DNA from: an uncultured delta proteobacterium
Lineage (GTDB): Bacteria > Desulfobacterota > Binatia > Binatales > Binataceae
Assembly (NCBI GenBank): GCA_963774705.1
Contig: CAVZFW010000001.1
Coordinates: 383,356 to 447,355, forward strand
Direction: 5' to 3'
Length of the DNA: 64,000 nucleotides
Shown here: in pieces, positions 2,553 to 35,923 of the stretch
Numbering within the stretch: the stretch's first letter is position 1
How the letters are laid out: every line of letters begins with the position of its first letter
Made by a program: the position numbers and the translations under genes
Notes under the pieces: model-generated
Seen by the model: the letters and a program-made list of their open reading frames with translations, nothing else
Told to the model about the DNA's origin: nothing
Database searches by the model: none

Positions 2553-3212
2553 ATGACGCGGATACAGGAAGAGCGAAGTGCAGAGACGCGCGGGCGGCTC
2601 CTTAATGCGACTGTCGAATGTCTCCATGAGTTTGGCTATGCCGGCGCGACGACGACCGAGATCGCGCGGCGAGCGGGGCTTTCGCGCGGCGCCCAACTCC
2701 ACCATTTCCATCGCAAACAGGACCTTGTCGTCAGCGCCCTCGAGCACGTGTTTGCGTTGCGCCTGGAACAGTTCACGCAGACCGCGGTTGAGTTGCCGGT
2801 GGGAATGGAGGCGCGGGTCAGCGCGCTGATCGATCTGTTGTGGCCGGCCTTCAAGGGCCCGGCGTTTTACGCGTGGCTGGAACTGGTGGTCGCTTCGCGC
2901 ACCGATCCGGCATTGCGTCAGGCGGTGAGGATCGCCAGTGAGAATTTCGCCCACGGAGTGCATCGAGTGTTTCAGGCGCTCTTCGGTCTAAAGAGCGCGT
3001 CAGACCATGTTGACGACCCGATCGTATTTGCGATTTTCGGCTTGCTCGAGTCGCTCGCCTTGGAGTGGGCGCTGTGCGATTCGGAGGATGAAGAGCGACG
3101 GAAGTTCGAGCCGGCAATCGCCTACGTCAAAACTATCGCGAATTTCGTCGTGCGCGAGGCGCGGCGTGAGGCCAAGATCGAAGATTCTTCGAGCGAGGTG
3201 GTTCGCCGATGA
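2553..3212 (+). CDS. TetR/AcrR family transcriptional regulator
   Basis: 219-aa ORF. N-terminal HTH RGRLLNATVECLHEFGYAGATTTEIARRAGLSRGAQLHHF. Its stop overlaps the P450 start (ATGA at 3209-3212). Confidence 0.9.
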   Translation: MTRIQEERSAETRGRLLNATVECLHEFGYAGATTTEIARRAGLSRGAQLHHFHRKQDLVVSALEHVFALRLEQFTQTAVELPVGMEARVSALIDLLWPAFKGPAFYAWLELVVASRTDPALRQAVRIASENFAHGVHRVFQALFGLKSASDHVDDPIVFAIFGLLESLALEWALCDSEDEERRKFEPAIAYVKTIANFVVREARREAKIEDSSSEVVRR

Positions 3213-4405
3213 GCAGTGCAGTTTATTTCAATCCGTGGGACGAAGCGTTTCGCGCCAATCCCTACCCCCATTACAAGGCGCTCTACGGCCGACCGCCTCA
3301 TCTGCTGAACATGTTCTTCCCGATGGCGCTGGTGGCTTGCTACGACGACGCAGCGATGATTCTGAAAGATTACGAGCGCTTCAGCAGCTCGAAGAAAAAC
3401 CAGACCTTCGACGAACAGGAGCGAACGTTATTTGCGGGTGCCGCGACCGTGCTGTTCTCCGATCCGCCGACCCAGACGCGATTGCGCAGGCTGATGAGCC
3501 GCGCGTTCACGCCCAAGCGGATCCGGGACCTCGAACCGCGCATCGTTGAGCTGACCCATTCGCTGCTTGATCGGGCGGCACGCAAGGGCGAAATCGAAGT
3601 AATGAGCGACCTTGCGACACCGCTGCCGGTCATGGTGATCGCAGAGATGCTGGGCGTGCCGCCCCTTGAATATGAGCAATTCAAGCATTGGTCCGACCGT
3701 ATCGTGGAGAGCGACAATACGCCGCCCGGAATGCCGCTGCCGCCGGATATCACACAGGCGGCCAACGACCTGCGCGCCTATATCGGCGGTGAGATCGAAC
3801 GGCGGCGTCGCGAACCGGGTGAAGATCTGATTAGTGCGCTGGTTGCCGCGCATGACGAAGCCGAGGCCCTCAGCGCCAACGAACTGCTAGCCTTCGTGAT
3901 TCTGCTGCTGCTCGCCGGCAACGAGACGACCACCAATCTGATCGGCAACGGGATGCTCGCGCTGGGGCGCAATCCGGAGCAGCTTGAACTGCTCCGCAAG
4001 GAACCGTCGCTGATGCCGCAAGCGGTCGAAGAAATGTTGCGGTACGACGGTCCGGTGCAATCGACCGTGCGCCACAATGACGAGCCGATAGAAATCGGCG
4101 GCGTGTCGATCGCGGCGCAGACAATGGTGTTCGTGATCCTGGCGGCGGCAAATCGCGACCCGGCGCACTTCAACCGTCCGGACGTGTTCGATATCACGCG
4201 CGAGCCCGACGGGCACCTTGCGTTTGGCGACGGCATCCACTTTTGTCTCGGCGCGGCGCTCGCGCGGCTCGAGGGCGCGATCGCCTTCGCCAGCTTGATC
4301 GAGCGATTCCCGCATCTGCGGCTGGCGGAACCGGATACCGCAGCAAAGTACAAGGGCTCATATTTTCTTCGCGGGCTGAGCGCGCTGAAGATGGCGACCA
4401 ACTGA
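3209..4405 (+). CDS. cytochrome P450
   Basis: 398-aa ORF with I-helix LLLAGNETTTN, EXXR (EEMLR) and the heme-Cys loop FGDGIHFCLGAALAR. Confidence 0.95.
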   Translation: MSSAVYFNPWDEAFRANPYPHYKALYGRPPHLLNMFFPMALVACYDDAAMILKDYERFSSSKKNQTFDEQERTLFAGAATVLFSDPPTQTRLRRLMSRAFTPKRIRDLEPRIVELTHSLLDRAARKGEIEVMSDLATPLPVMVIAEMLGVPPLEYEQFKHWSDRIVESDNTPPGMPLPPDITQAANDLRAYIGGEIERRRREPGEDLISALVAAHDEAEALSANELLAFVILLLLAGNETTTNLIGNGMLALGRNPEQLELLRKEPSLMPQAVEEMLRYDGPVQSTVRHNDEPIEIGGVSIAAQTMVFVILAAANRDPAHFNRPDVFDITREPDGHLAFGDGIHFCLGAALARLEGAIAFASLIERFPHLRLAEPDTAAKYKGSYFLRGLSALKMATN

Positions 4406-4418
4406 AGCGAGGTATTCG

Positions 4419-5626
4419 ATGGCTGCGGCAACCGAAACTCCGGGCATTTACTTTAATCCGTGGGACGAGGCCTATCGCGCTAATCCATATCCATACTACG
4501 AACCGCTTATGGCCGTCCGCCGCATCTGATGAACCTCTTTATTCCGATGGCGTTGGTGGCGCGTTATGCCGACGCGGCTGCGATCTTACGCGACCATGAG
4601 CGCTTCTCGAGCGTGCCGCCCACCTCGCCGTTTATCGAGATGCGATTGGAGGTGTTCGGCCGTGCGCCGCGCGTGGTCTTTTCCGATCCGCCGGTTCATA
4701 CGCGGCTGCGCAAGCTGGTGAGCAAAGCCTTCACGCCGCGGCGTATCAGGGAATTGGAACCGCGCATTCGCGAGTTCACTACGACCTTGATCGAACGGGC
4801 TGCCCGCAACGGCGAGTTCGAGGTGATGGCCGACCTGGCGAATCCGTTGCCGGTGATGGTGATCGCCGAAATGCTGGGGGTATCGCAGGACGATTACGAA
4901 CAATTCAAACACTGGTCTGACCAGGTGATTGAAAACGACAACGTACCTCCAGGCGCCGAGATGCCGTCGTACATCGTCGACGCGTTTAACGGGCTCCGCA
5001 GCTACTTTATCAACGAGATCGAAAAGCGCCGCCGAAATCCGGGCAGCGACCTGATCAGTGCGCTGGTCGCCGCGCGCGATGAGTCTGAAGCCCTGAGTGA
5101 AGAGGAACTGATCGCGTTCGTGGTCTTGCTGCTGCTTGCGGGCAACGAAACCACGACGAACCTGATTGGCAACGGGATGCTGGCGCTCGGACGTAATCCG
5201 GATCAATTGTCGAAGTTGCGCAACGACTCGTCATTGATGCCGCGTGCGATCGAGGAGATGTTACGCTATGACTGCTCGGTGCAGGCAACCGCCCGTTACC
5301 CGAAAATCGACCTGGAGGTCGGCGGCGTAGAGATCAAAACGAACACCCCGATATTCGTGATCGTCGCGGCAGCGAATCGCGATCCCGCGCATTTCCCGAA
5401 TGCAGACAAGTTCGATGTAGCGCGCGACCCCAACGACCATCTAGCGTTCGGCGACGGCATCCATTACTGCCTCGGCGCGCCGCTGGCGCGGATGGAGGGT
5501 GCGATCGCGATCGCCGCTGCGCTTCAGCGCTTTCCGCAACTGCGGTTGGCCGATCCGAATGCGCCGCTAACCTACAAAGGATCGTACTTCCTGCGCGGGC
5601 TGAGTGCGCTCAAAATGGCACTTTAG
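4419..5626 (+). CDS. cytochrome P450, tandem paralog of 3209-4405, with one frame disruption near 4507
   Basis: ATG at 4419 gives MAAATETPGIYFNPWDEAYRANPYPYYEPL, parallel to the N-terminus of the first P450. The frame then slips by 1 nt at ccgcTTatgg. ORF 4529-5626 continues ...HLMNLFIPMALVARYAD... to FGDGIHYCLGAPLAR. Confidence 0.85.
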
Positions 5627-10294: not shown

Positions 10295-10400
10295 CGTTCG
10301 CACTCGATGACCTTCGCGTCGGAGTCGGGAGACGTTGGAAGACGCCATCGCCGCGGTCGCGAATTCGGAGTATCTGTGTACTCGTTGGATGACTGAAAAG

Positions 10401-11929
10401 ATGTTCAAGAGGATTCTGATTGCCAATCGCGGCGAGATTGCCGTTCGCGTGATCCGCGCCTGCCGCGAGTTGGGTATCGAGATCGGTCGCGGTCTTTTCC
10501 GAGGCCGATCGCGCCGCGCTGCATGTGCGCGATGCCGATTATGCGGTAGCGGTTGGACCGGCGCCCGCGCGCGAGAGCTATCTCAACGTCGAACGCATTC
10601 TCGAAGCCGCCAAGGCGACCGGCGCCGAGGCGGTCCATCCGGGCTACGGCTTCTTTTCCGAGAACGCCGGCTTTGCGCGCGCAGTAGCCGACGCCGGAAT
10701 GGTCTTTATCGGCCCGCCACCCACGCGATCGAGAAGATGGGCGACAAGGTCGAAGCGCGCAAGCTGATGGCGGCGGCGGGCGTGCCGGTGGTGCCGGGTT
10801 CGCCCGGTACGCTCGAGACCGAGGACGAAGTACGCGCGGTCGCGAACAAGATCGGCTTCCCGATCATGCTGAAGGCGGCGGCCGGCGGCGGCGGCAAAGG
10901 GATGCGCCTGGTCGAGAACGAAAAGGACCTCGCGTCAGCGGTGCGCACGGTCGCGAGCGAGGCCAAGTCGTCGTTCGGCGACGGCCGTTTCTACGTCGAA
11001 AAATTCGTCAAGCGGCCGCGCCATATCGAGATTCAGGTCTTCGCCGATCAGAAGGGCGAGACGGTGCACGTGTTCGAGCGCGAATGTTCGATTCAGCGCC
11101 GCAATCAGAAGGTGGTCGAGGAATCGCCGTCGCCGTTTATCACGCCCGAGATGCGCCGCTGCGATGGGCGAAGTCGCGGTCAAAGCCGCGCGGGCGGTCA
11201 ATTACGTCGGCGCCGGCACGATCGAATTTCTCGCGGACGCGGATCGGAATTTCTACTTCCTCGAAATGAACACGCGCATCCAGGTCGAGCATCCGGTGAC
11301 CGAACTGGTCACCGGCGTCGATCTGGTGAAGGCGCAGATCCAGGTCGCTGCGGGGATGCCATTGCCGTTCAAGCAGAGCGACCTCGCGCAACGCGGATGG
11401 GCGATCGAGTGCCGCATCTATGCCGAGGATCCGGCGGCGGGTTTTGTCCCCGCGCCCGGCCGAGATCGATACGCTGCGCCTGCCCGATGGACCGGGCGTG
11501 CGGGTTGATGCCGGCGTGTACGAGGGCTCGGAGGTTTCGCTCTTTTACGATCCGATGATTGCGAAACTGGCGACGTGGGGGCGCGACCGCGGCGAGGCGA
11601 TCGATCGCATGCGCCGGGCGCTCGCCGAATTTGCGATTGCAGGCGAGCTGACGACCAACCTCGAATTTCATCGCTGGATCGTCGAGCAGCCCGGCTTTCT
11701 CGCCGGCGACTTCGACACCAATTTCATCAACCAAGAATATCATCCCGAGAAGCTGGCGCGTGGCGAAGACGCGACGCGGATGGCCGCAATACTTGCTGCG
11801 GCGGTGACAGCGCATCGCAGTCAAAACCATGCGGCCACGTCGCTGCCGGATTCTGGAAGCGCGGGCGTCAGTGCGAATGGCGTATCGGCGTGGAAGACCC
11901 TCGGCCGCATCGACATGCTGCGGCGTTAA
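10401..11929 (+). CDS. accC: biotin carboxylase subunit of acyl-CoA carboxylase; at least 4 frame disruptions
   Basis: Starts [27 protein letters not shown] at 10401. It continues through the frames of ORFs 10525-10767, 10335-11558, 11164-11508 and 11420-11929 (…[10 protein letters not shown]…, …[14 protein letters not shown]…, …[12 protein letters not shown]…). Confidence 0.9.
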
Positions 11930-11953
11930 CGTGCCCGAAGGAGAACGTCCGAG

Positions 11954-12460
11954 ATGCCGATGAGACTGGTGGCGACGCTCGACGGCGCCGAGCATCAACT
12001 AGAAGTGGAGGAACTTTCCGCTCATACCCTCCGCCTCAAGTTGGGCGAGCGCCAATTCGCCCTCGACGTCCATCGCGTAGGCTCCTCGTCGTACTCGATT
12101 CTAGTGGACAACCGTTCATTCGATTTCGAAGTCGTTCGCGAGGGCGAGGATTTAATGGTGACCTCGCGCGGCGGAGCGACTCGTGTAACGCTGGTTGATG
12201 CGGCACGGAAATCGCGCCATCCCGGCGCGCGTCCGCAGGCCGCCGGCAAGGCGTCGCTCAAGGCGATGATGCCGGGTCGCGTCGTCAACGTCCTGGTGAA
12301 CGTAGGCGACGAAGTAGCGGCGCAGCAGGGGTTGCTGGTGGTCGAGGCGATGAAGATGGAAAACGAACTGAAGGCGCCCAAGGCTGGTAAAGTCGTCGAG
12401 ATCAAGGTCAAGGCCGGGCAGACCGTCGAGAAGGGCGAACTGTTGCTGGTCGTCGAGTAA
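11954..12460 (+). CDS. biotin carboxyl carrier (biotinyl/lipoyl attachment domain) protein
   Basis: 168-aa ORF. C-terminal biotinylation motif [13 protein letters not shown]. Confidence 0.85.
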
Positions 12461-12471
12461 TCGATCGATTC

Positions 12472-12504
12472 TATTTGCGAGGCCGTGATTTTATTTGCGA
12501 GGCC

Positions 12505-12510
<6 letters not shown>
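12472..12510 (+). repeat. 20-bp tandem direct repeat spanning the mutase start codon
   Basis: TATTTGCGAGGCCgTGAtt (12472-12490) is followed by TATTTGCGAGGCCaTGAgc (12492-12510). The 13-nt core is identical. Confidence 0.8.
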
Positions 12511-14184
<1,674 letters not shown>

Positions 14185-14323
14185 CGCATCGTTAACTTCG
14201 TGCGCCCGATGATCGGTGGACGCGGTCTTTCATAGGGATCGGATGTCTGGGAGATTAATGCTCGTGTCGCGACCAATCGATCAAGTGGCGGCCAACATGT
14301 CAGCCATGGGAGATAGCAACTAA

Positions 14324-14887
14324 ATGGGTCCGTTGCCGAAGGGTGTGTTTCTGACCAAGGGAGTTGGGAAACACCGCGAAAAGCTCAACGCTTTCGAGCT
14401 TTCGCTGCGCTCCGCACAAATCGCCGAGTATAATCTCGTGCGGGTAAAATCGATTTTTCCGCCGCTGTGCAAGCTGATCACGCCACAGGAAGGGCTGCGA
14501 TATTTGAGGCCTGGACAGATCGTGTTTGCGGTGATGAGCGATAACGCGACCGACGAACCGCATCGGCTGTGCGCGGCCTCGGTGGGCGTCGCGATTCCGG
14601 CCGACTCGCGCCAATACGGTTACCTTTCGGAACATCACAGCTTCGGCGAGACCGAGCAGAAGTCGGGTGACTATGCCGAAGACCTGGCCGCGATGATGCT
14701 CGCGACGATTCTTGGCGTCGATTTCGATCCCAATGCAAGTTACGACGAGCGCAAGGACATCTGGCGCGTATCCGACAAGATCGTCTCCACGCGCAACGTC
14801 ACCCAGTCGGCGATTGGCGATCGCGACGGGTTGTGGACCTCGGTGGTCGCGGCGGCGGTGTTCGTCGATTTGCCCGACGGCAAGTAA
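14324..14887 (+). CDS. pdaD: pyruvoyl-dependent arginine decarboxylase
   Basis: 187-aa ORF. PKGVFLTKGVGKHREKLNAFELSLRSAQIAEYNLVRVKSIFPP matches the PvlArgDC N-terminal and self-processing region. Confidence 0.85.
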   Translation: MGPLPKGVFLTKGVGKHREKLNAFELSLRSAQIAEYNLVRVKSIFPPLCKLITPQEGLRYLRPGQIVFAVMSDNATDEPHRLCAASVGVAIPADSRQYGYLSEHHSFGETEQKSGDYAEDLAAMMLATILGVDFDPNASYDERKDIWRVSDKIVSTRNVTQSAIGDRDGLWTSVVAAAVFVDLPDGK

Positions 14888-14939
14888 GGCGCCGGGGCAC
14901 GCAATTGAGTGTACGTCACGGTCGATGTAGGCTGACCAT

Positions 14940-15170
14940 ATGCCAACCGAGATTTTCTACTGCTCGCATTGAGGGTACCGGCCACGCGCGGCCAGTCTGG
15001 CCGCCATACTCAAATCGCGCTTCGATGAGGACGCAACGTTGACGCCCGGCAAGACCGGCCAGTTCGACGTTTTTGCCGACGGCAAGCTGATTTTCTCAAA
15101 GGCGACGGCTGGACGCTTTCCGCTCGAGGGCGAAGTCGAAGAGGCGTTCGCCAAGCTGCAGAAGAAGTAG
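14940..15170 (+). CDS. SelW/Rdx-family selenoprotein; in-frame UGA (Sec) at 14970-14972
   Basis: Not in the ORF track. ATG at 14940, TGA at 14970, TAG at 15168 (231 nt, in frame). The translation is MPTEIFYCSH-U-GYRPRAASLAAILKSRFDEDATLTPGKTGQFDVFADGKLIFSKATAGRFPLEGEVEEAFAKLQKK. It has a CxxU redox motif and the Rdx-type C-terminal half (…DGKLIFSK…GRFP…). selA is present in the same window. Confidence 0.8.
14988..15004 (+). promoter_or_regulatory. candidate bacterial SECIS hairpin
   Basis: GCGGCCA-GUC-UGGCCGC is a 7-bp GC-rich stem with a G/U-containing apical loop. It starts 18 nt after the U of the UGA. Confidence 0.5.
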
Positions 15171-15181
15171 AGAACGGTGTC

Positions 15182-16045
15182 TCAACGATCGTCGGCAGTG
15201 CCTAATATACGGCCGAGGTCGGCGGGAGCGAGCCGAATGCCGAAATAGAACGGCCCGAACTCGGCATAGCGCGCGCTCGATTCGTCAAAGCGCATCTCGT
15301 AGACCAGTTTCTTGAAGACCAACGGATCGTCGGCGAAAAGATCGACGCCCCATTCCCAGTCGTCGAAGCCGATCGATCCGGAAATTACCTGCGTTACCTG
15401 TCCGGCGTAGCGGCGGCCAATCATGCCATGATCACGCATCAGAAGTTGCCGCTCTTCGATCGGTAGCGAGTACCAATTGTCGCTGCCAGAGCGCCGCTTG
15501 TTCATCGGATAGAAGCAGACGTAGCGACGGTCGGGCACCTGCGGCCACAGGCGCGCACCCAGCTTGTGACGTTGGTCCTCGAGATCGTCCTTGACCGCTT
15601 GAATCCACTCCGGCGAATGTGGCTTCAGCCCCTTTTCGACCAACTCCGCGTGGAGTTTAACGGTGGCTTCGTAGAGGCCGATTTCAACCACCGAAAGATA
15701 TGAAGTGGTTGGTTCGAGGAACTCACTGAGCCCGAGTCGGCCCACCTCGAGTTGCGCGACGCCAAGCTCATCGAAGCCGCGGCGAAAATGAATCGCGATA
15801 AGATCGCCCTTATGGCCCAGTTGCGAGAAGATTGCACTCTGGCCGTCTTCGCGCCGTTCCATCGCGGAAAAGGCGAGAGAGGCGTTTTCAATAATCTTCG
15901 CACGCCGGTCTGCCATCAACGCGTTCCATTGGGGGCGGCGCAGGCGAAAGAACTGATGCAACAAGGCATAGCCTTCGAGCGTGTGGGGTGCTGCCGCGAC
16001 ATCGCGGGCGGTAGTGGAAGATTCGTCTGAAGGCGTTCGCTTCAT
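15182..16045 (-). CDS. chlorite dismutase family protein (HemQ/ChdC-like coproheme decarboxylase)
   Basis: 287-aa ORF. …YVCFYPMNKRR…NWY…RDHGMIGRRYAG.V.QVISGSIGFDDWEWGVDLFADDP…KLVYEMRFDE is the family pattern. Confidence 0.8.
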   Translation of the reverse strand: MKRTPSDESSTTARDVAAAPHTLEGYALLHQFFRLRRPQWNALMADRRAKIIENASLAFSAMERREDGQSAIFSQLGHKGDLIAIHFRRGFDELGVAQLEVGRLGLSEFLEPTTSYLSVVEIGLYEATVKLHAELVEKGLKPHSPEWIQAVKDDLEDQRHKLGARLWPQVPDRRYVCFYPMNKRRSGSDNWYSLPIEERQLLMRDHGMIGRRYAGQVTQVISGSIGFDDWEWGVDLFADDPLVFKKLVYEMRFDESSARYAEFGPFYFGIRLAPADLGRILGTADDR

Positions 16046-16126
16046 GGTTGCAAATTGGGCGTCTAACTCTGTCGCGATTCGATTAATCCTTGCTCAATTT
16101 ATATTCGCAGGCGACGCTTCCGCCAA

Positions 16127-17515
16127 CTAGCAGTTGCGGTTGCGGAATTGAACGCATGACTCGACCAGGCCCGCAGCCGCTGACGGATTCGAGGCCCAAT
16201 GTGCGTGGACATAGGACGCGAGCAAATTGCCCGAACGATAGCCCTCGGTAAATTCCTCGCCCCATTTCGGACGTACCGCGTATACGTGTTCGATTCCGGC
16301 GGGAGCTGGTTCGAGGTTCGAGTAGCGAAATTGGTGGCCGCGAAAGCGAAGGCCGGCCGGTCCGAGCAACGACGCTGCAATCGTCTCGATTTCCACGTAG
16401 CCGATCGCTTGCAGACGATCATTCATGACCGCGTCGGCGGGAATCAGGCCAACCATGGGGAAAGTCACGCCATCGACCGTGCGAATGGCGCGAGTGAGGT
16501 ACATCAGACCGCCGCACTCGGCGTAAATCGGACCACCGCGCGCTGCAAATTCACGCACCGCCGAGATCATCGAATTATTCGAGGATAATTGCGGAGCGAC
16601 GGCCTCGGGATAGCCGCCGCCGAAATAGAGTCCGTCCACCGCAGGCAGTTCGCGATCGCGGGTCGGACTGAAATTCACGATCTCGGCGCCAAGCACTTCG
16701 AGTCGACGAAGGTTGTCCTCGTAGTAGAAGTGGAATGCGTCGTCTAGCGCGACCCCGATACGGCATCGCGATGAACGATTCGATGCCCGCTCGCGGTTGG
16801 CGGTTGGAAACTCTAAAGGCTGGACCGTGTGCGCGATAGAAATGATCTTGTCGAGGTCGAGCCATTCGCTGGCGAGCCGCCCCCATTGATCGAGCAGTCG
16901 CCGCGGAACGTGCTGTTCGTTCGCGCTGAAGAGGCCCAAGTGACGCTCGGGGAACTTGGCCGAGGCCGTCTCGGGCAGGCCGCCGACGACCAGCACCTCG
17001 CGCGACGCCATGCGCAGCAAGTCGAGATGGCCGCGACCTCCGACCCGATTGCAGATGAGACCGGCGAGTTTAAGCGCCGGATCGAAACGCGCAAAGCCAT
17101 GAGCGACCGCAGCGATCGTGCGGGCCATGCCGGATGCGTCGGTCACCAGGATCACCGGCGCAGCGAGCCATTTCGCGATTTCAGCGCTGGAGCCCTCGTC
17201 GGCGATCGGCGAAGCCCCGTCGAAAAGCCCCATCATGCCTTCGATGACCGCAATGTCGGCGTTACCAGCAGCGCGCACGAAGGTCGCGACGACCGCCTCG
17301 CGCCCCATCATCCAGCCGTCGAGATTATGCGAGACGCCGCCGCTCACGCGCGCGTGATAGGTCGGATCGAGATAGTCAGGTCCGCATTTGAAAGCGGCGA
17401 CGGAGAGACCGCGCGCCCGCAGTGCGGCGATTAATCCGATGGTCGCAGTGGTCTTGCCGGCGCCGCTTCCGGTGGCCGCGATCAACAGACGTGGAATTGG
17501 CTTGCCGCCGGTCAT
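16127..17515 (-). CDS. cbiA: cobyrinate (or related tetrapyrrole) a,c-diamide synthase
   Basis: 462-aa ORF with an N-terminal P-loop (IAATGSGAGKTTATIGLIAAL) and a C-terminal glutamine amidotransferase domain (IYAECGGLMYL). Confidence 0.85.
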   Translation of the reverse strand: MTGGKPIPRLLIAATGSGAGKTTATIGLIAALRARGLSVAAFKCGPDYLDPTYHARVSGGVSHNLDGWMMGREAVVATFVRAAGNADIAVIEGMMGLFDGASPIADEGSSAEIAKWLAAPVILVTDASGMARTIAAVAHGFARFDPALKLAGLICNRVGGRGHLDLLRMASREVLVVGGLPETASAKFPERHLGLFSANEQHVPRRLLDQWGRLASEWLDLDKIISIAHTVQPLEFPTANRERASNRSSRCRIGVALDDAFHFYYEDNLRRLEVLGAEIVNFSPTRDRELPAVDGLYFGGGYPEAVAPQLSSNNSMISAVREFAARGGPIYAECGGLMYLTRAIRTVDGVTFPMVGLIPADAVMNDRLQAIGYVEIETIAASLLGPAGLRFRGHQFRYSNLEPAPAGIEHVYAVRPKWGEEFTEGYRSGNLLASYVHAHWASNPSAAAGLVESCVQFRNRNC

Positions 17516-21388: not shown

Positions 21389-22499
21389 TCAGAAGATCAC
21401 GACGCCGCGAATGGACTTGCCCTGATGCATCAGGTCGAAGCCTTCGTTGATGCGATCGAGCGGTAGGGTGTGTGTTATGAGGTCGTCGATATTGATGCGC
21501 CCGTCCATGTACCAATCGACGATTTTAGGCACGTCGCGCCGGCTTTTGGCGCCGCCGAATGCGGTTCCCTTCCAGGTGCGTCCGGTCACCAGCTGAAACG
21601 GCCGCGTCGAAATCTCCTGACCGGCGCCGGCCACGCCGATTATTACGCAGGTGCCCCATCCACGCTGACAGCACTCGAGTGCCTGGCGCATCAATTGTAC
21701 GTTGCCCACGCATTCGAAAGAGAAATCTGCGCCGCCCTTGGTCAAATCGATCAGATAGGGCACTAGCTCGCCGCGAACTTCCGCGGGGTTGACGAAATGC
21801 GTCATGCCGAATTTTGTCGCAATTGCCTGGCGTCCCGGATTCTGGTCAACGCCAACGATCATGGAGGCGCCCGCCAATCGCGCGCCTTGCACAACGTTAA
21901 GCCCGATCCCGCCGAGCCCGAACACGACGACCCGATCGCCGACCTGGACCTTCGCCGTATTGATCACCGCGCCGATTCCGGTGGTCACGCCGCAGCCGAT
22001 GTAGCAGACCTTGTCGAACGGCGCGTCGTCGCGAATCTTCGCCAGCGCGATCTCCGGCACGACCGTGTAATTCGCGAAGGTCGACGTGCCCATATAATGA
22101 TGCACTGGCTTGCCGCCAAGCGAAAAGCGACTGGTTCCGTCGGGCATCAGTCCGCGTCCCTGGGTCTCGCGAATCGCCGTGCACAGATTCGTCCGCCCCG
22201 ACAGACATGACGGACAGTTGCGGCATTCCGGGATGTAAAGCGGAATCACGTGATCGCCCGGCTTCAGTGTCGTCACTGCTGGCCCGATTTCGACCACCAC
22301 GCCCGCGCCCTCGTGGCCCATGATCGACGGGAACAGCCCCTCCGGGTCCTTGCCCGATAGCGTGTAGGCGTCCGTATGACAGATCGCCGGTCGCCTTGAT
22401 TTCGACCAGCGCCTCGCCCGCCTTCGGCCCGTCGAGATCGACCTCGGTCACTTCCAGCGGCACGCCCACCGCGCGCGCCAACGCCGCCCTGACTTTCAC
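21389..22499 (-). CDS. frmA: class III zinc alcohol dehydrogenase / S-(hydroxymethyl)glutathione dehydrogenase; one frame disruption near 22385
   Basis: The N-terminus [38 protein letters not shown] (ORF 21897-22499) joins ORF 21389-22321 ([12 protein letters not shown]…[15 protein letters not shown]…GLGGIGLNV). Confidence 0.9.
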
Positions 22500-22592
22500 G
22501 ATTATCTACCTGCCTTTCACAATTCCTGAGAATGGACCCTCGACGAGGGGGCTGTTTCCCGCGAATTCCTGCGCGTTTACATTGAGAGTGAA

Positions 22593-26076: not shown

Positions 26077-28905
<2,829 letters not shown>

Positions 28906-29191
28906 AAAAAGAGAGTGACCGCCCGGTCTTCTCAACCGTCCACAACCAATCAATTATAGTACGCTGCACCAGATACCGAGTAAAGGGAGTGAACGAAGAT
29001 AATAGGAACACTTCAAACAGTATTTGAAAGAAGGATTAAATGTAGCAAAAAACGCTTTATCTATCTAGGCATTTATTGTTTCGAAAGCCGTCTCCAATCG
29101 ATCGACTTTATAGCGTGGCTGACAGCATCAAATAGAACAAAGTTTTTGATTGAAACGACGCAAATCCATCATCCGCAGCGCTTCGGCGAGG

Positions 29192-33913: not shown

Positions 33914-35371
33914 ATGGCGGCACGTAGGAAAACTCAATCTCACGGGAGTCCTGATCAAGGATCGCAGGTTTTGCGGATGATGCCGCCGGTTGACGAGTGT
34001 CTTCAGGCGGCCGCGCAAGATCCGGCGCTGAGCGGCTTCGCGCGTGGGTATGTGCGACTGCTCGTGCGGCAGGCGCAGGCAGCGCTGCGAGCGAGAATCG
34101 CATCAGCCGATAGCGATGCGACGACGACGCGAACATCGTTGGTCGAGGAAATCGTGCAGCTGACGCGCGCGGCGGCTGCCGCGGGCGAGCCCTCGCTAAT
34201 GGCCGTGGTCAACGCAACCGGCGTGGTGCTGCATACGAATCTCGGCCGCGCGCTGCTGGCGGAATCGGCGATCGAGGCGGTTGTGCGCGCGGCGCGATCG
34301 CCGATGAATCTCGAATACGATCTCGCGAGTGGCCGGCGTGGCGACCGCGACGCGCTGATCGAGGAGGAGTTGTGCGCGCTGACCGGCGCCGAGGCAGCGA
34401 CCGTTGTTAACAACAACGCGGCCGCAGTCCTGCTAGCGCTCAATTCGATCGCCGACGGGCGCGAAGTGATCGTTTCACGCGGCGAGTTGATCGAGATTGG
34501 CGGGTCCTTCCGGATTCCCGAAGTGATGAGCCGAAGCGGCGCGCATCTGCGCGAAGTCGGCACCACGAACCGCACGCATCCGCGCGATTACGTTGCTGCG
34601 ATTGGTCCCGCGACCGCGCTGCTCCTCAAGGTGCAACCGTCGAACTACCGCATCGTCGGCTTCACTGCCGAGGTAAGCCTGGCCGAAATGGTCGCGATCG
34701 GCAACGCTCATCAGGTTCCGGTGATGGAAGATCTCGGGGCCGGCGCGCTGGTCGAAATGAGTCTTTACGGCTTGCCAAGCGAACCGATGGTGAGTGCGAG
34801 GGTCGCGGCCGGTGCGGGGCTGGTGACGTTTTCGGGTGACAAGCTGCTCGGCGGTCCGCAAGCAGGCTTGATCGTCGGGCGGCGCGATCTGATCGACCGA
34901 CTGAAGGCCAACCCGCTCAGGCGGGCCTTGCGTTGCGACAAGCTGACGCTCGCCGCACTCGAAGCGACGCTCAGGCTGTACCTGCGCAGCACCAATCTTG
35001 AGACGGATTTACCTACATTGAGACTGCTACGGCGCACACCGGCGGAATTGGAAAACGCCGCGACCCGCGCGCGCGAAATTCTCGCGGAACGCCTTGGCGC
35101 CGACTATGCAATCGAAGTGGTGGTTTCAGCATCCGAAGATCGGGTCGGGCGCATTACCGACTGAGGAAATCGAGTCGCGCGCGTTGCGGATTACCATCGT
35201 GAACATTCGCCCGACACTATCGCCAAGCTGTTTCGCACTGCGCGGCCTCCGGTAATCGGGCGCATCACGGACGGTGCATTCCAGCTCGATATGCGCGCCG
35301 TGGAGGATCCAGGCGCGTTCGCTGTGGAGTTTCCAGACAGTCCGGGCGCGGCTGTTGCACTTGCCAAATGA
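33914..35371 (+). CDS. selA: L-seryl-tRNA(Sec) selenium transferase; two frame disruptions in the last ~200 nt
   Basis: ORF 33914-35164 has [27 protein letters not shown] and the PLP-Lys motif [13 protein letters not shown]. The C-terminus continues in other frames …[21 protein letters not shown]… / …[36 protein letters not shown]…LAK* to TGA at 35369-35371. Confidence 0.9.
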
Positions 35372-35429
35372 CCGCGGCCATTAGATAGATCGGCGATGAT
35401 CTACATCCCTTCGCCGCGTGGAGGATCAC

Positions 35430-35648
35430 ATGCCCGACAAGACATACAAAATCATCGAAGTCGTTGGCGTTTCGGACGACAGCATTCATCAGGCTGTCCG
35501 CAACGCGATGAGCAAAGCGAGCCAGACCCTGCGCAATATCGATTGGTTTGAAGTGCAGAATATCCGCGGCGCCGTCCACGCTGGCAAATTGGAGTTTCAG
35601 GTCGAAGTGCGCATTGGCTTCCGCCTGGAGGGCGAGCCGGTGGCATGA
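35430..35648 (+). CDS. dodecin family flavin-binding protein
   Basis: MPDKTYKIIEVVGVSDDSIHQAVRNAMSKASQTLRNIDWFEVQNIRG…KLEFQVEVRIGFRL is the dodecin pattern. Confidence 0.8.
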   Translation: MPDKTYKIIEVVGVSDDSIHQAVRNAMSKASQTLRNIDWFEVQNIRGAVHAGKLEFQVEVRIGFRLEGEPVA

Positions 35649-35923
35649 CGATCGGCTTTCGCCGGTTATCGGGTTATCGATCGAGTCAGCCGGCTTCAAC
35701 GGTCCGGACAGACGAACGCGAGCGGGTCTGAAGTGTTGAATTGTGCGCGCAATTTGGCTGATGCGGGCAACGGCGTTCTGGTGCCTGGTGTTTTCTGGCG
35801 ATGGCAAGTCGCCGAGAAGTCGATTGATGCGAAGGTTGGTTTCACCCGATCGTCCCGCCTATGATTTTACTGGAAGATCCGTAATGCGGATCGCAGACCG
35901 ACTTTCTGGAGGCGGGTAAGACC

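Follow-up and report, generated by a model that had tools for sequence, protein, structure and literature searches.

Nucleotides 14940-15170 (+ strand) of a 64-kb stretch of Binataceae DNA (hereafter the window, meaning the whole stretch that was analysed) very probably form a genuine selenocysteine (Sec)-encoding gene of the SelW-like type, in which an in-frame UGA is followed by a functional-type bacterial SECIS element; we put the probability of this reading at about 0.93. Within the bacterial SelW-like selenoproteins, a family known for many years, the gene is an ordinary representative.

An in-frame UGA splits a SelW-like reading frame

Direct reading of the sequence gave an ATG at 14940, a Cys codon (TGC) at 14961-14963, a TGA at 14970-14972 and a TAG stop at 15168-15170, all on the + strand, so that the gene (14940-15170) comprises 76 codons, including one Sec codon, followed by the stop. 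The translation runs MPTEIFYCSH, then the TGA, then GYRPRAASLAAILKSRFDEDATLTPGKTGQFDVFADGKLIFSKATAGRFPLEGEVEEAFAKLQKK, with ...KLQKK at the C-terminal end. The TGA at 14970-14972 is the sole in-frame TGA of the 76-codon frame, and the frame contains no frame changes, as compared with the indels in other genes of the window. Coordinates, sequence and the TGA-split frame were all the same on re-reading as in the first-pass annotation of this DNA. The Cys codon and the TGA lie at the two ends of a CxxU redox motif, Cys8-Ser9-His10-Sec11 (14961-14972, +).

The same annotation had reported that the gene is missing from the list of open reading frames, and this was indeed the case: the only in-frame entry there is a 43-aa fragment that starts at a TTG (15039-15170, +), which ordinary ORF callers put in place of the gene. 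Public gene callers behave likewise, since the public gene call P0004 has 43 aa and is 100% identical to this fragment.

The product belongs to the Rdx family

Profile searches were run with Cys replacing Sec at the UGA position. Residues 4-68 of the resulting protein matched Pfam Rdx (PF10262) at 64.3 bits (cutoff 22.6), and the protein scored 53.8 bits against TIGR02174 (CXXU_selWTH; cutoff 34.2). By these curated profile cutoffs it belongs to the Rdx (SelT-SelW-SelH) family, as had been proposed at first sight. The best-scoring NCBIfam model was NF041051, 'SelT/SelW/SelH family (seleno)protein' (SelTWH_Campy), at 80.7 bits; this is below the equivalog cutoff of 88, and the protein is therefore not filed as a Campylobacter-type equivalog.

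A sequence search of the PDB returned MIEN1 (2LJK) as the best match (E = 5e-7) and also matched mouse SelW (2NPB). In these alignments, the UGA column coincides with the second Cys of the CxxC motif in MIEN1 (2LJK), 2P0G and 2OKA, and the natural Cys forms of the subfamily likewise carry a Cys there, within a CxxC. Two expectations were thus borne out, namely that the CxxU motif occupies the position of the Rdx redox motif and that Cys-containing homologs align a Cys to the UGA. The C-terminal DG.L.FSK...GRFP block, already singled out from the sequence, is common to the bacterial SelW-like family.

The fold was modelled on a proxy, P0030, which is the closest natural Cys form and aligns with the window protein without gaps at 50% identity. 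The P0030 model (pLDDT 93.9) has a beta-alpha-beta-beta-beta-alpha topology, with the CxxC located between strand beta1 (E2-8) and helix alpha1 (H14-28). It superimposes on the bacterial SelW-related structures 2FA8, 2OBK, 2OJL and 2P0G with TM scores of 0.85-0.94 and an rmsd of about 1 Å, and it also matches MIEN1 and SelW structures. As judged from this proxy, the window protein is predicted to adopt the thioredoxin-like Rdx fold, and it may have thiol/selenol oxidoreductase activity.

Selenocysteine machinery and quality of the assembly

A selA gene, encoding L-seryl-tRNA(Sec) selenium transferase, lies at 33914-35371 (+). It scored 511 bits against TIGR00474 (cutoff 268; profile positions 1-385 of 455) and 468 bits against Pfam SelA, and it is 18.9 kb away from the selW-like gene, in line with the earlier estimate of about 19 kb. 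The assembled selA ORF ends at 35164, and its C-terminal domain is reached via two frame changes in the 3' end (35140-35371, +), one near 35145 and the other near 35200; the true end of the gene is probably 35371, not 35164. An unassigned minus-strand ORF (35265-35807) overlaps the selA 3' end. It had also been stated that no selB, selC or selD adjoins selA, and none was found in the 64-kb window: no tRNA genes were detected there, so selC is absent from it, no ORF is long enough for selB, and no selD-like ORF occurs among the larger ORFs scanned. The presence of the selW-like gene together with selA indicates that Binataceae decode selenocysteine.

Several other genes in the window are interrupted in a similar manner. 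The gyrB gene (26487-28953, -) is represented by two overlapping ORFs in different frames, with a junction near 27700 between ...KAKDL and RRKGALDSG...; since gyrB is essential and yet frameshifted, an assembly or sequencing indel is suggested rather than a pseudogene. An accC-like biotin carboxylase gene (10335-12200, +) needs at least four frame changes across its conserved domains. The profile match of a class III alcohol dehydrogenase/S-(hydroxymethyl)glutathione dehydrogenase (21389-22500, -) begins only at position 59; the shift is near 22385, and the N-terminal ~58 residues are in another frame, with ...VEIKATG before the junction. Because gyrB and accC show frame changes too, assembly indels are the likelier cause of those at the selA 3' end.

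Database entries and the residue inserted at the UGA

In the protein collections searched, this subfamily is found almost only as 42-57 aa fragments or as 'CxxW' proteins. A sensitive search with the post-UGA peptide recovered full-length relatives of two kinds, one with a true CxxC and the other with 'CxxW', the latter including P0022, P0034, P0037, P0040, P0042, P0045, P0046 and others. The DNA behind two of them, P0046 (locus L048) and P0022 (loci L049 and L050), contains a TGA and a fully paired stem, and under genetic code 11 it does not yield the stored protein, which identifies these entries as Sec forms and gene-caller artefacts. The UGA-as-Trp entries presumably stem from gene callers working with genetic code 4. 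Between the fragments and the 'CxxW' entries, the redox-active residue becomes invisible to data miners.

Two further sets of database matches were observed. P0007 (123 aa, from a 614-nt ENA contig) consists of the N-terminus of a sigma-54 activator ATPase (PF00158) fused to the C-terminal two-thirds of a SelW-like protein, the two parts meeting at ...CASLAGSLKSRF...; either the contig seems to be chimeric or the call seems to run through the hairpin region. P0020 (6643 aa), P0025, P0031, P0032 and P0058 are very large proteins, each matched in 6-12 stretches by 'GKTGQFDV.ADGKL', and a likeness in a beta-hairpin motif of otherwise unrelated repeat proteins is the probable explanation.

A question raised by these entries is whether the UGA is recoded to something other than Sec, that is, to Trp or Gly by an alternative code, or to Cys via SelB and a SECIS element without selenophosphate synthesis. 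The many 'CxxW' versions in public databases, as well as the failure to find selD in the 64-kb window, speak for such recoding, but the two 'W' proteins that were checked, at three loci, have a TGA in their DNA as described above. Moreover, TGA ends 31 of the 56 long non-overlapping ORFs of the window and is thus the commonest ordinary stop, which excludes genome-wide reassignment of UGA and with it codes 4 and 25. The window encodes SelA, which has no known role other than the synthesis of Sec-tRNA(Sec), and the homologs without UGA carry Cys at this column; an exchange of Sec and Cys at a homologous column is the usual pairing. Overall, insertion of a residue other than Sec is very improbable, and Sec remains the preferred reading of the codon.

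The UGA and the surrounding frame are conserved

A genome scan with one genome per species, in which YRPRAASL was among the search patterns, yielded 39 loci. At 38 of these, which span at least six phyla, a TGA occupies the UGA column; the remaining locus, from a gammaproteobacterial MAG, has CTQC in place of the TGA motif. The loci come from Binataceae, Acidobacteriota, Myxococcota, Desulfuromonadales, Syntrophaceae, Desulfomonile, Gemmatimonadota, an Obscuribacterales MAG and a Limisphaerales MAG, and the closest ones are from Binataceae (69-84% identity). Because YRPRAASL served as a search pattern, the conservation of this peptide among the 39 loci is inflated; the degenerate pattern imposes neither codon choice nor covariation. 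A TGA was also present at nine metagenome loci (L040-L045 and L048-L050), which were reached via C-terminal words alone and thus independently of YRPRAASL. Two of these, L040 and L041, have 59% identity and the sequence U-DGYDV-RAASLAA, again with the TGA. In the alignment of Sec forms, the TGA is found at this column in 39 of 39 sequences, and counted over all loci it recurs in more than 45 independent assemblies.

The window gene was also aligned, without gaps, to those of seven Binataceae relatives. The variable sites were distributed over the three codon positions as 27/24/62 along the gene and as 4/2/7 within the ten codons upstream of the TGA, where the protein is kept as MATEI[FL]YC and the changes are mainly at third positions. 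The start is fixed (ATG, with MATEI or MPTEI), and in some relatives stops occur a few codons upstream of it. The predominance of third-position variation on both sides of the TGA demonstrates that one frame is under purifying selection through the UGA, which agrees with the earlier description of a frame intact on either side. Homologs that end at the TGA, or that are unconserved beyond it, had been named as grounds for abandoning the reading; the homologs instead continue, and their downstream part is conserved.

A base-call error had been named as another such ground. If the TGA were a base-call or assembly error for TGC or TGT, the gene would be a plain Cys-containing Rdx homolog, and natural Cys forms of the subfamily do exist. 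The assembly is also error-prone, as gyrB, accC, the class III alcohol dehydrogenase gene and selA all need frame changes; however, the errors seen are indels, not substitutions. The 38 Sec-form genome loci and the nine metagenome loci, which come from independent assemblies, all share the TGA at this column; this speaks against an error in the present assembly, and on this ground we reject it as extremely improbable. In addition, each of the 18 close database relatives is stored as a truncated call (42-57 aa) or, in one case, as a chimeric call, which implies that they share the in-frame stop. In the window, the hairpin described below is still fully paired and its Ser codon is AGT, whereas both Cys forms compared are mismatched and one of them, L046, has AGC.

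A further alternative takes the UGA as a true stop, with the gene either decaying as a pseudogene or yielding no more than a short peptide from its downstream part. This is scarcely credible even though gene callers report only the 43-aa downstream ORF, as the ten upstream codons are conserved with mainly third-position changes and a fixed ATG, the upstream piece bears strand beta1 and the redox Cys, both of which the fold needs, and neither a pseudogene nor a downstream-only peptide would keep the TGA, the frame and the hairpin covariation across phyla.

A SECIS-type hairpin follows the UGA

The sequence behind the Sec codon can fold into a bacterial SECIS hairpin at 14988-15004 (+), with a 7-bp stem (14988-14994/14998-15004; strands GCGGCCA and UGGCCGC) and a GUC loop (14995-14997), all inside the codons R-A-A-S-L-A-A. 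The stem and the loop are exactly where the first-pass annotation had placed them. Its spacing of 18 nt holds if counted from the U of the UGA, but only 15 nt separate the last base of the UGA from the stem. This spacer (14973-14987, +; codons G-Y-R-P-R) is conserved as amino acids only, with variable third positions, and L040 and L049 have one additional codon in it.

Published descriptions of bacterial SECIS elements give an apical loop of 3-9 nt and an upper stem of 4-16 bp (PMC13188914 Fig. 2), a G at either of the first two positions of the loop, mostly with G or U after it, in the pattern N1-G-[G/U]-N-N2 (PMC13188914), as well as a UGA-to-loop distance of 16-37 nt and a minimum free energy (MFE) of -7.5 kcal/mol or lower (PMC13188914). 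The window hairpin agrees with these descriptions in all four respects, as the claim of a bacterial SECIS geometry had implied. Its loop is 3 nt and its stem 7 bp. The apex A-G-U-C-U (14994-14998) fits the pattern, and none of its A, G, first U and last U varies among the 39 sequences. The UGA-to-loop spacing is 22 nt (14973-14994), or 25 nt in L040 and L049, and the MFE of the 17-nt hairpin is -12.0 kcal/mol, compared with a mean of -10.6 kcal/mol (range -12.0 to -7.3) for the 39 Sec forms. When both strands of the 64-kb window were searched for a UGA with an [AG]GU[CU]U loop 18-39 nt further on and a stem of at least 6 bp, the pattern occurred once, at this site only. A naive scan of the window for redox motifs with an in-frame TGA was useless, as it returned some 170 candidates, the GC content being 61%.

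In context, the folding energy was no better than that of shuffled sequences (z = -0.74 for 64 nt and +0.94 for 121 nt). GC-rich coding sequence makes thermodynamic z-scores uninformative, and covariation was therefore used instead; the significance of the hairpin comes from covariation and from frozen synonymous sites, not from its folding energy. A direct repeat, CGGCCA-CGCG-CGGCCA (14979-14994, +), permits a competing fold in which the upstream CGGCCA pairs with 14998-15003 around a larger loop (-17.2 kcal/mol in a 48-nt context). The repeat is present in the window and L001, and the other loci do not conserve it. A search against Rfam gave no match at the gathering threshold in the window and no SECIS family at E values up to 10 on 14900-15100; the matches within that limit were non-SECIS only and at chance level, and no Rfam model therefore detects the element.

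The hairpin covaries in Sec forms

Covariation was measured in the 39-sequence alignment (38 distinct sequences) against 500 shuffles. Five of the seven stem pairs join two bases that are each at the first or second position of a codon. Of these five, three are invariant, 14992-15000 is once a G-U wobble, and the outermost one is lost in 7 of the 38 distinct sequences. Both of the other pairs, which include synonymous third positions, covary. Pair 14990-15002 occurs in six types (CG, GC, UA, UG, GU and AU) and pair 14993-14999 in four (CG, GC, UG and UA), and neither is unpaired in any of the 38 sequences. Overall, 97.4% of the cells were paired, compared with 85.2% in the shuffles, and 27 double-change cells were counted where 6.5 were expected. 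The covariation score was 0.318 against 0.072 in the shuffles, none of the 500 reaching 0.318. When the 3' arm was slid by 1 to 3 columns, only 19-55% of the cells were paired and the score did not exceed 0.09, and RNAalifold independently gave the same helix. All 39 sequences use AGT for the loop Ser, a codon that makes up just 5.9% of the Ser codons in 20 window genes. These results demonstrate that the hairpin structure is maintained by selection.

Two Cys-form loci, L046 and L047, served as the control for the hairpin (n = 2), a third Cys form, P0060, being left out. L046 (TGC) has AGC as its Ser codon and G·G at both covarying positions, and its MFE of -4.6 kcal/mol belongs to a different structure. 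In L047 (TGC), a single G·G mismatch leaves a hairpin that is weaker (-7.5 kcal/mol) and has a larger loop. Both loci retain the RAASLA peptide despite the mismatches at the variable stem pairs. This pattern is as expected and, with n = 2, is suggestive of a hairpin that is maintained for UGA decoding rather than for the protein.

Taken across the Sec forms, the element lacks a bulge, has an A-GU[C/U]-U apex, tolerates an extra codon and doubles as the start of helix alpha1. We consider it likely that these features define a discrete, cross-phyla class of SECIS element specific to SelW-like genes.

Gene neighbourhood

In the window (12475-17515), the selW-like gene follows a methylmalonyl-CoA mutase gene and a pyruvoyl-dependent arginine decarboxylase (PvlArgDC) gene, and this order was found at all six Binataceae genome loci (L001-L006). 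At five of the six, a chlorite-dismutase-like gene comes next on the opposite strand, followed by a cobyrinate a,c-diamide synthase gene where the locus extends far enough. The metagenome contigs L042-L045 have the same gene order, which was observed at 0 of the 33 loci of other lineages. We rejected this synteny as a functional link: it is confined to Binataceae and probably reflects shared ancestry, so no function is read into the neighbourhood. Elsewhere in the window, two adjacent cytochrome P450 genes (3209-5626, +; 398 and 365 aa) and a luciferase-like monooxygenase gene (280-1137) were observed, which fits the hydrocarbon/methylotrophic metabolism associated with Binatota in the literature.

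Discussion

Bacterial SelW-like selenoproteins have been described since about 2005 by Zhang, Gladyshev and co-workers. In the Sargasso Sea survey, SelW-like CXXU proteins ranked first in abundance among the selenoprotein families (48 genes); the same study showed the bacterial SECIS element of one SelW-like gene and called the function of these proteins unclear, inferring a redox role from the CXXU motif (PMC1088965). SelW-like proteins were later listed in many bacterial genomes, and the family may be ancestrally Sec-containing (PMC1794560). A 2026 review places 'SELENOW-like protein, PF10262, CxxU' under 'predicted with high confidence', not under the experimentally supported families. These sources are in keeping with the initial remark that the family was already known in bacteria. 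The window gene shares with the known bacterial SelW-like selenoproteins the profile family (PF10262 and TIGR02174), the position of the CxxU, the small single-domain size, the DG.L.FSK...GRFP block and a SECIS element directly downstream of the UGA, and there is no essential difference between them. What distinguishes it is the host lineage, Binataceae (Candidatus Binatota), for which a limited literature search found no account of selenoproteins.

The Cys-containing Rdx proteins (2FA8, 2OBK, 2OKA, 2OJL, 2P0G and 3DEX) have the same fold, as judged from the P0030 proxy, and the redox motif in the same place. They carry a CxxC (typically C-T/R-Q-C) followed by [NRQ]-[WF]-x-L-R-A-x-W, with neither a UGA nor a SECIS element. 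Unlike them, the window protein reads CxxU-G-Y-R-P-R-A-A-S-L-A. Mammalian SelW (2NPB) and MIEN1/C17orf37 (2LJK) also have the Rdx fold, with CxxU or CxxC at the homologous position. The SECIS element of eukaryotic SelW, however, is located in the 3'-UTR and has a different architecture (PMC1088965 Fig. 7 legend), whereas that of the window gene is inside the coding region.

A closer parallel to the hairpin is the experimentally characterised SECIS element of E. coli fdhF, which likewise lies just downstream of the UGA and exposes a G-U in its loop. The numbering of the fdhF element and its SelB contacts are established. Read directly, the two apices are nearly identical (GCA-GGU-CUG-C in fdhF and GCC-AGU-CUG-GC in the window), and the fdhF sequence GCA-GGU-CUG-C is present at 100% identity inside fdhF in 5,419 of 5,426 genomes. 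In contrast, the window stem has no counterpart of the bulged U of fdhF, and its loop is 3 nt long (5 if the A-U pair opens) instead of a GGUC tetraloop. Counted from the U of the UGA, the G-U occupies +26/27 here and +29/30 in L040 and L049, compared with +23/24 in fdhF. The window hairpin thus lacks the bulged U, the GGUC tetraloop and the G-U at +23/24 that mark an fdhF-type SECIS; by analogy, it would work like the fdhF element, yet it is another element.

In the mechanism that we propose, the mRNA hairpin at 14988-15004 would sit 15 nt behind the UGA during translation, presenting the invariant G-U in its apical loop. SelB would bind this hairpin, Sec-tRNA(Sec) would be supplied by the SelA encoded 19 kb away, and the UGA at 14970-14972 would be read as selenocysteine, not as a stop. 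The product would be a small thioredoxin-like protein with a presumed function as a thiol/selenol oxidoreductase.

The biological significance of this single copy is small, as it behaves as expected and SelW-like proteins rank among the most abundant selenoproteins known from bacteria, and its value lies mostly in annotation. The nearly invariant hairpin signature GCN-GCN-AGU-YUN-GCN-GC, with paired wobble positions, offers a simple and specific means of recovering such genes, and the hairpin region is a clean natural example of a sequence constrained both as protein and as RNA. If the hairpin does represent a discrete SECIS class, a covariance model could rescue the entries that are now truncated or that read the UGA as Trp. 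If the Sec reading is true, Candidatus Binatota would be added to the documented Sec-using lineages.
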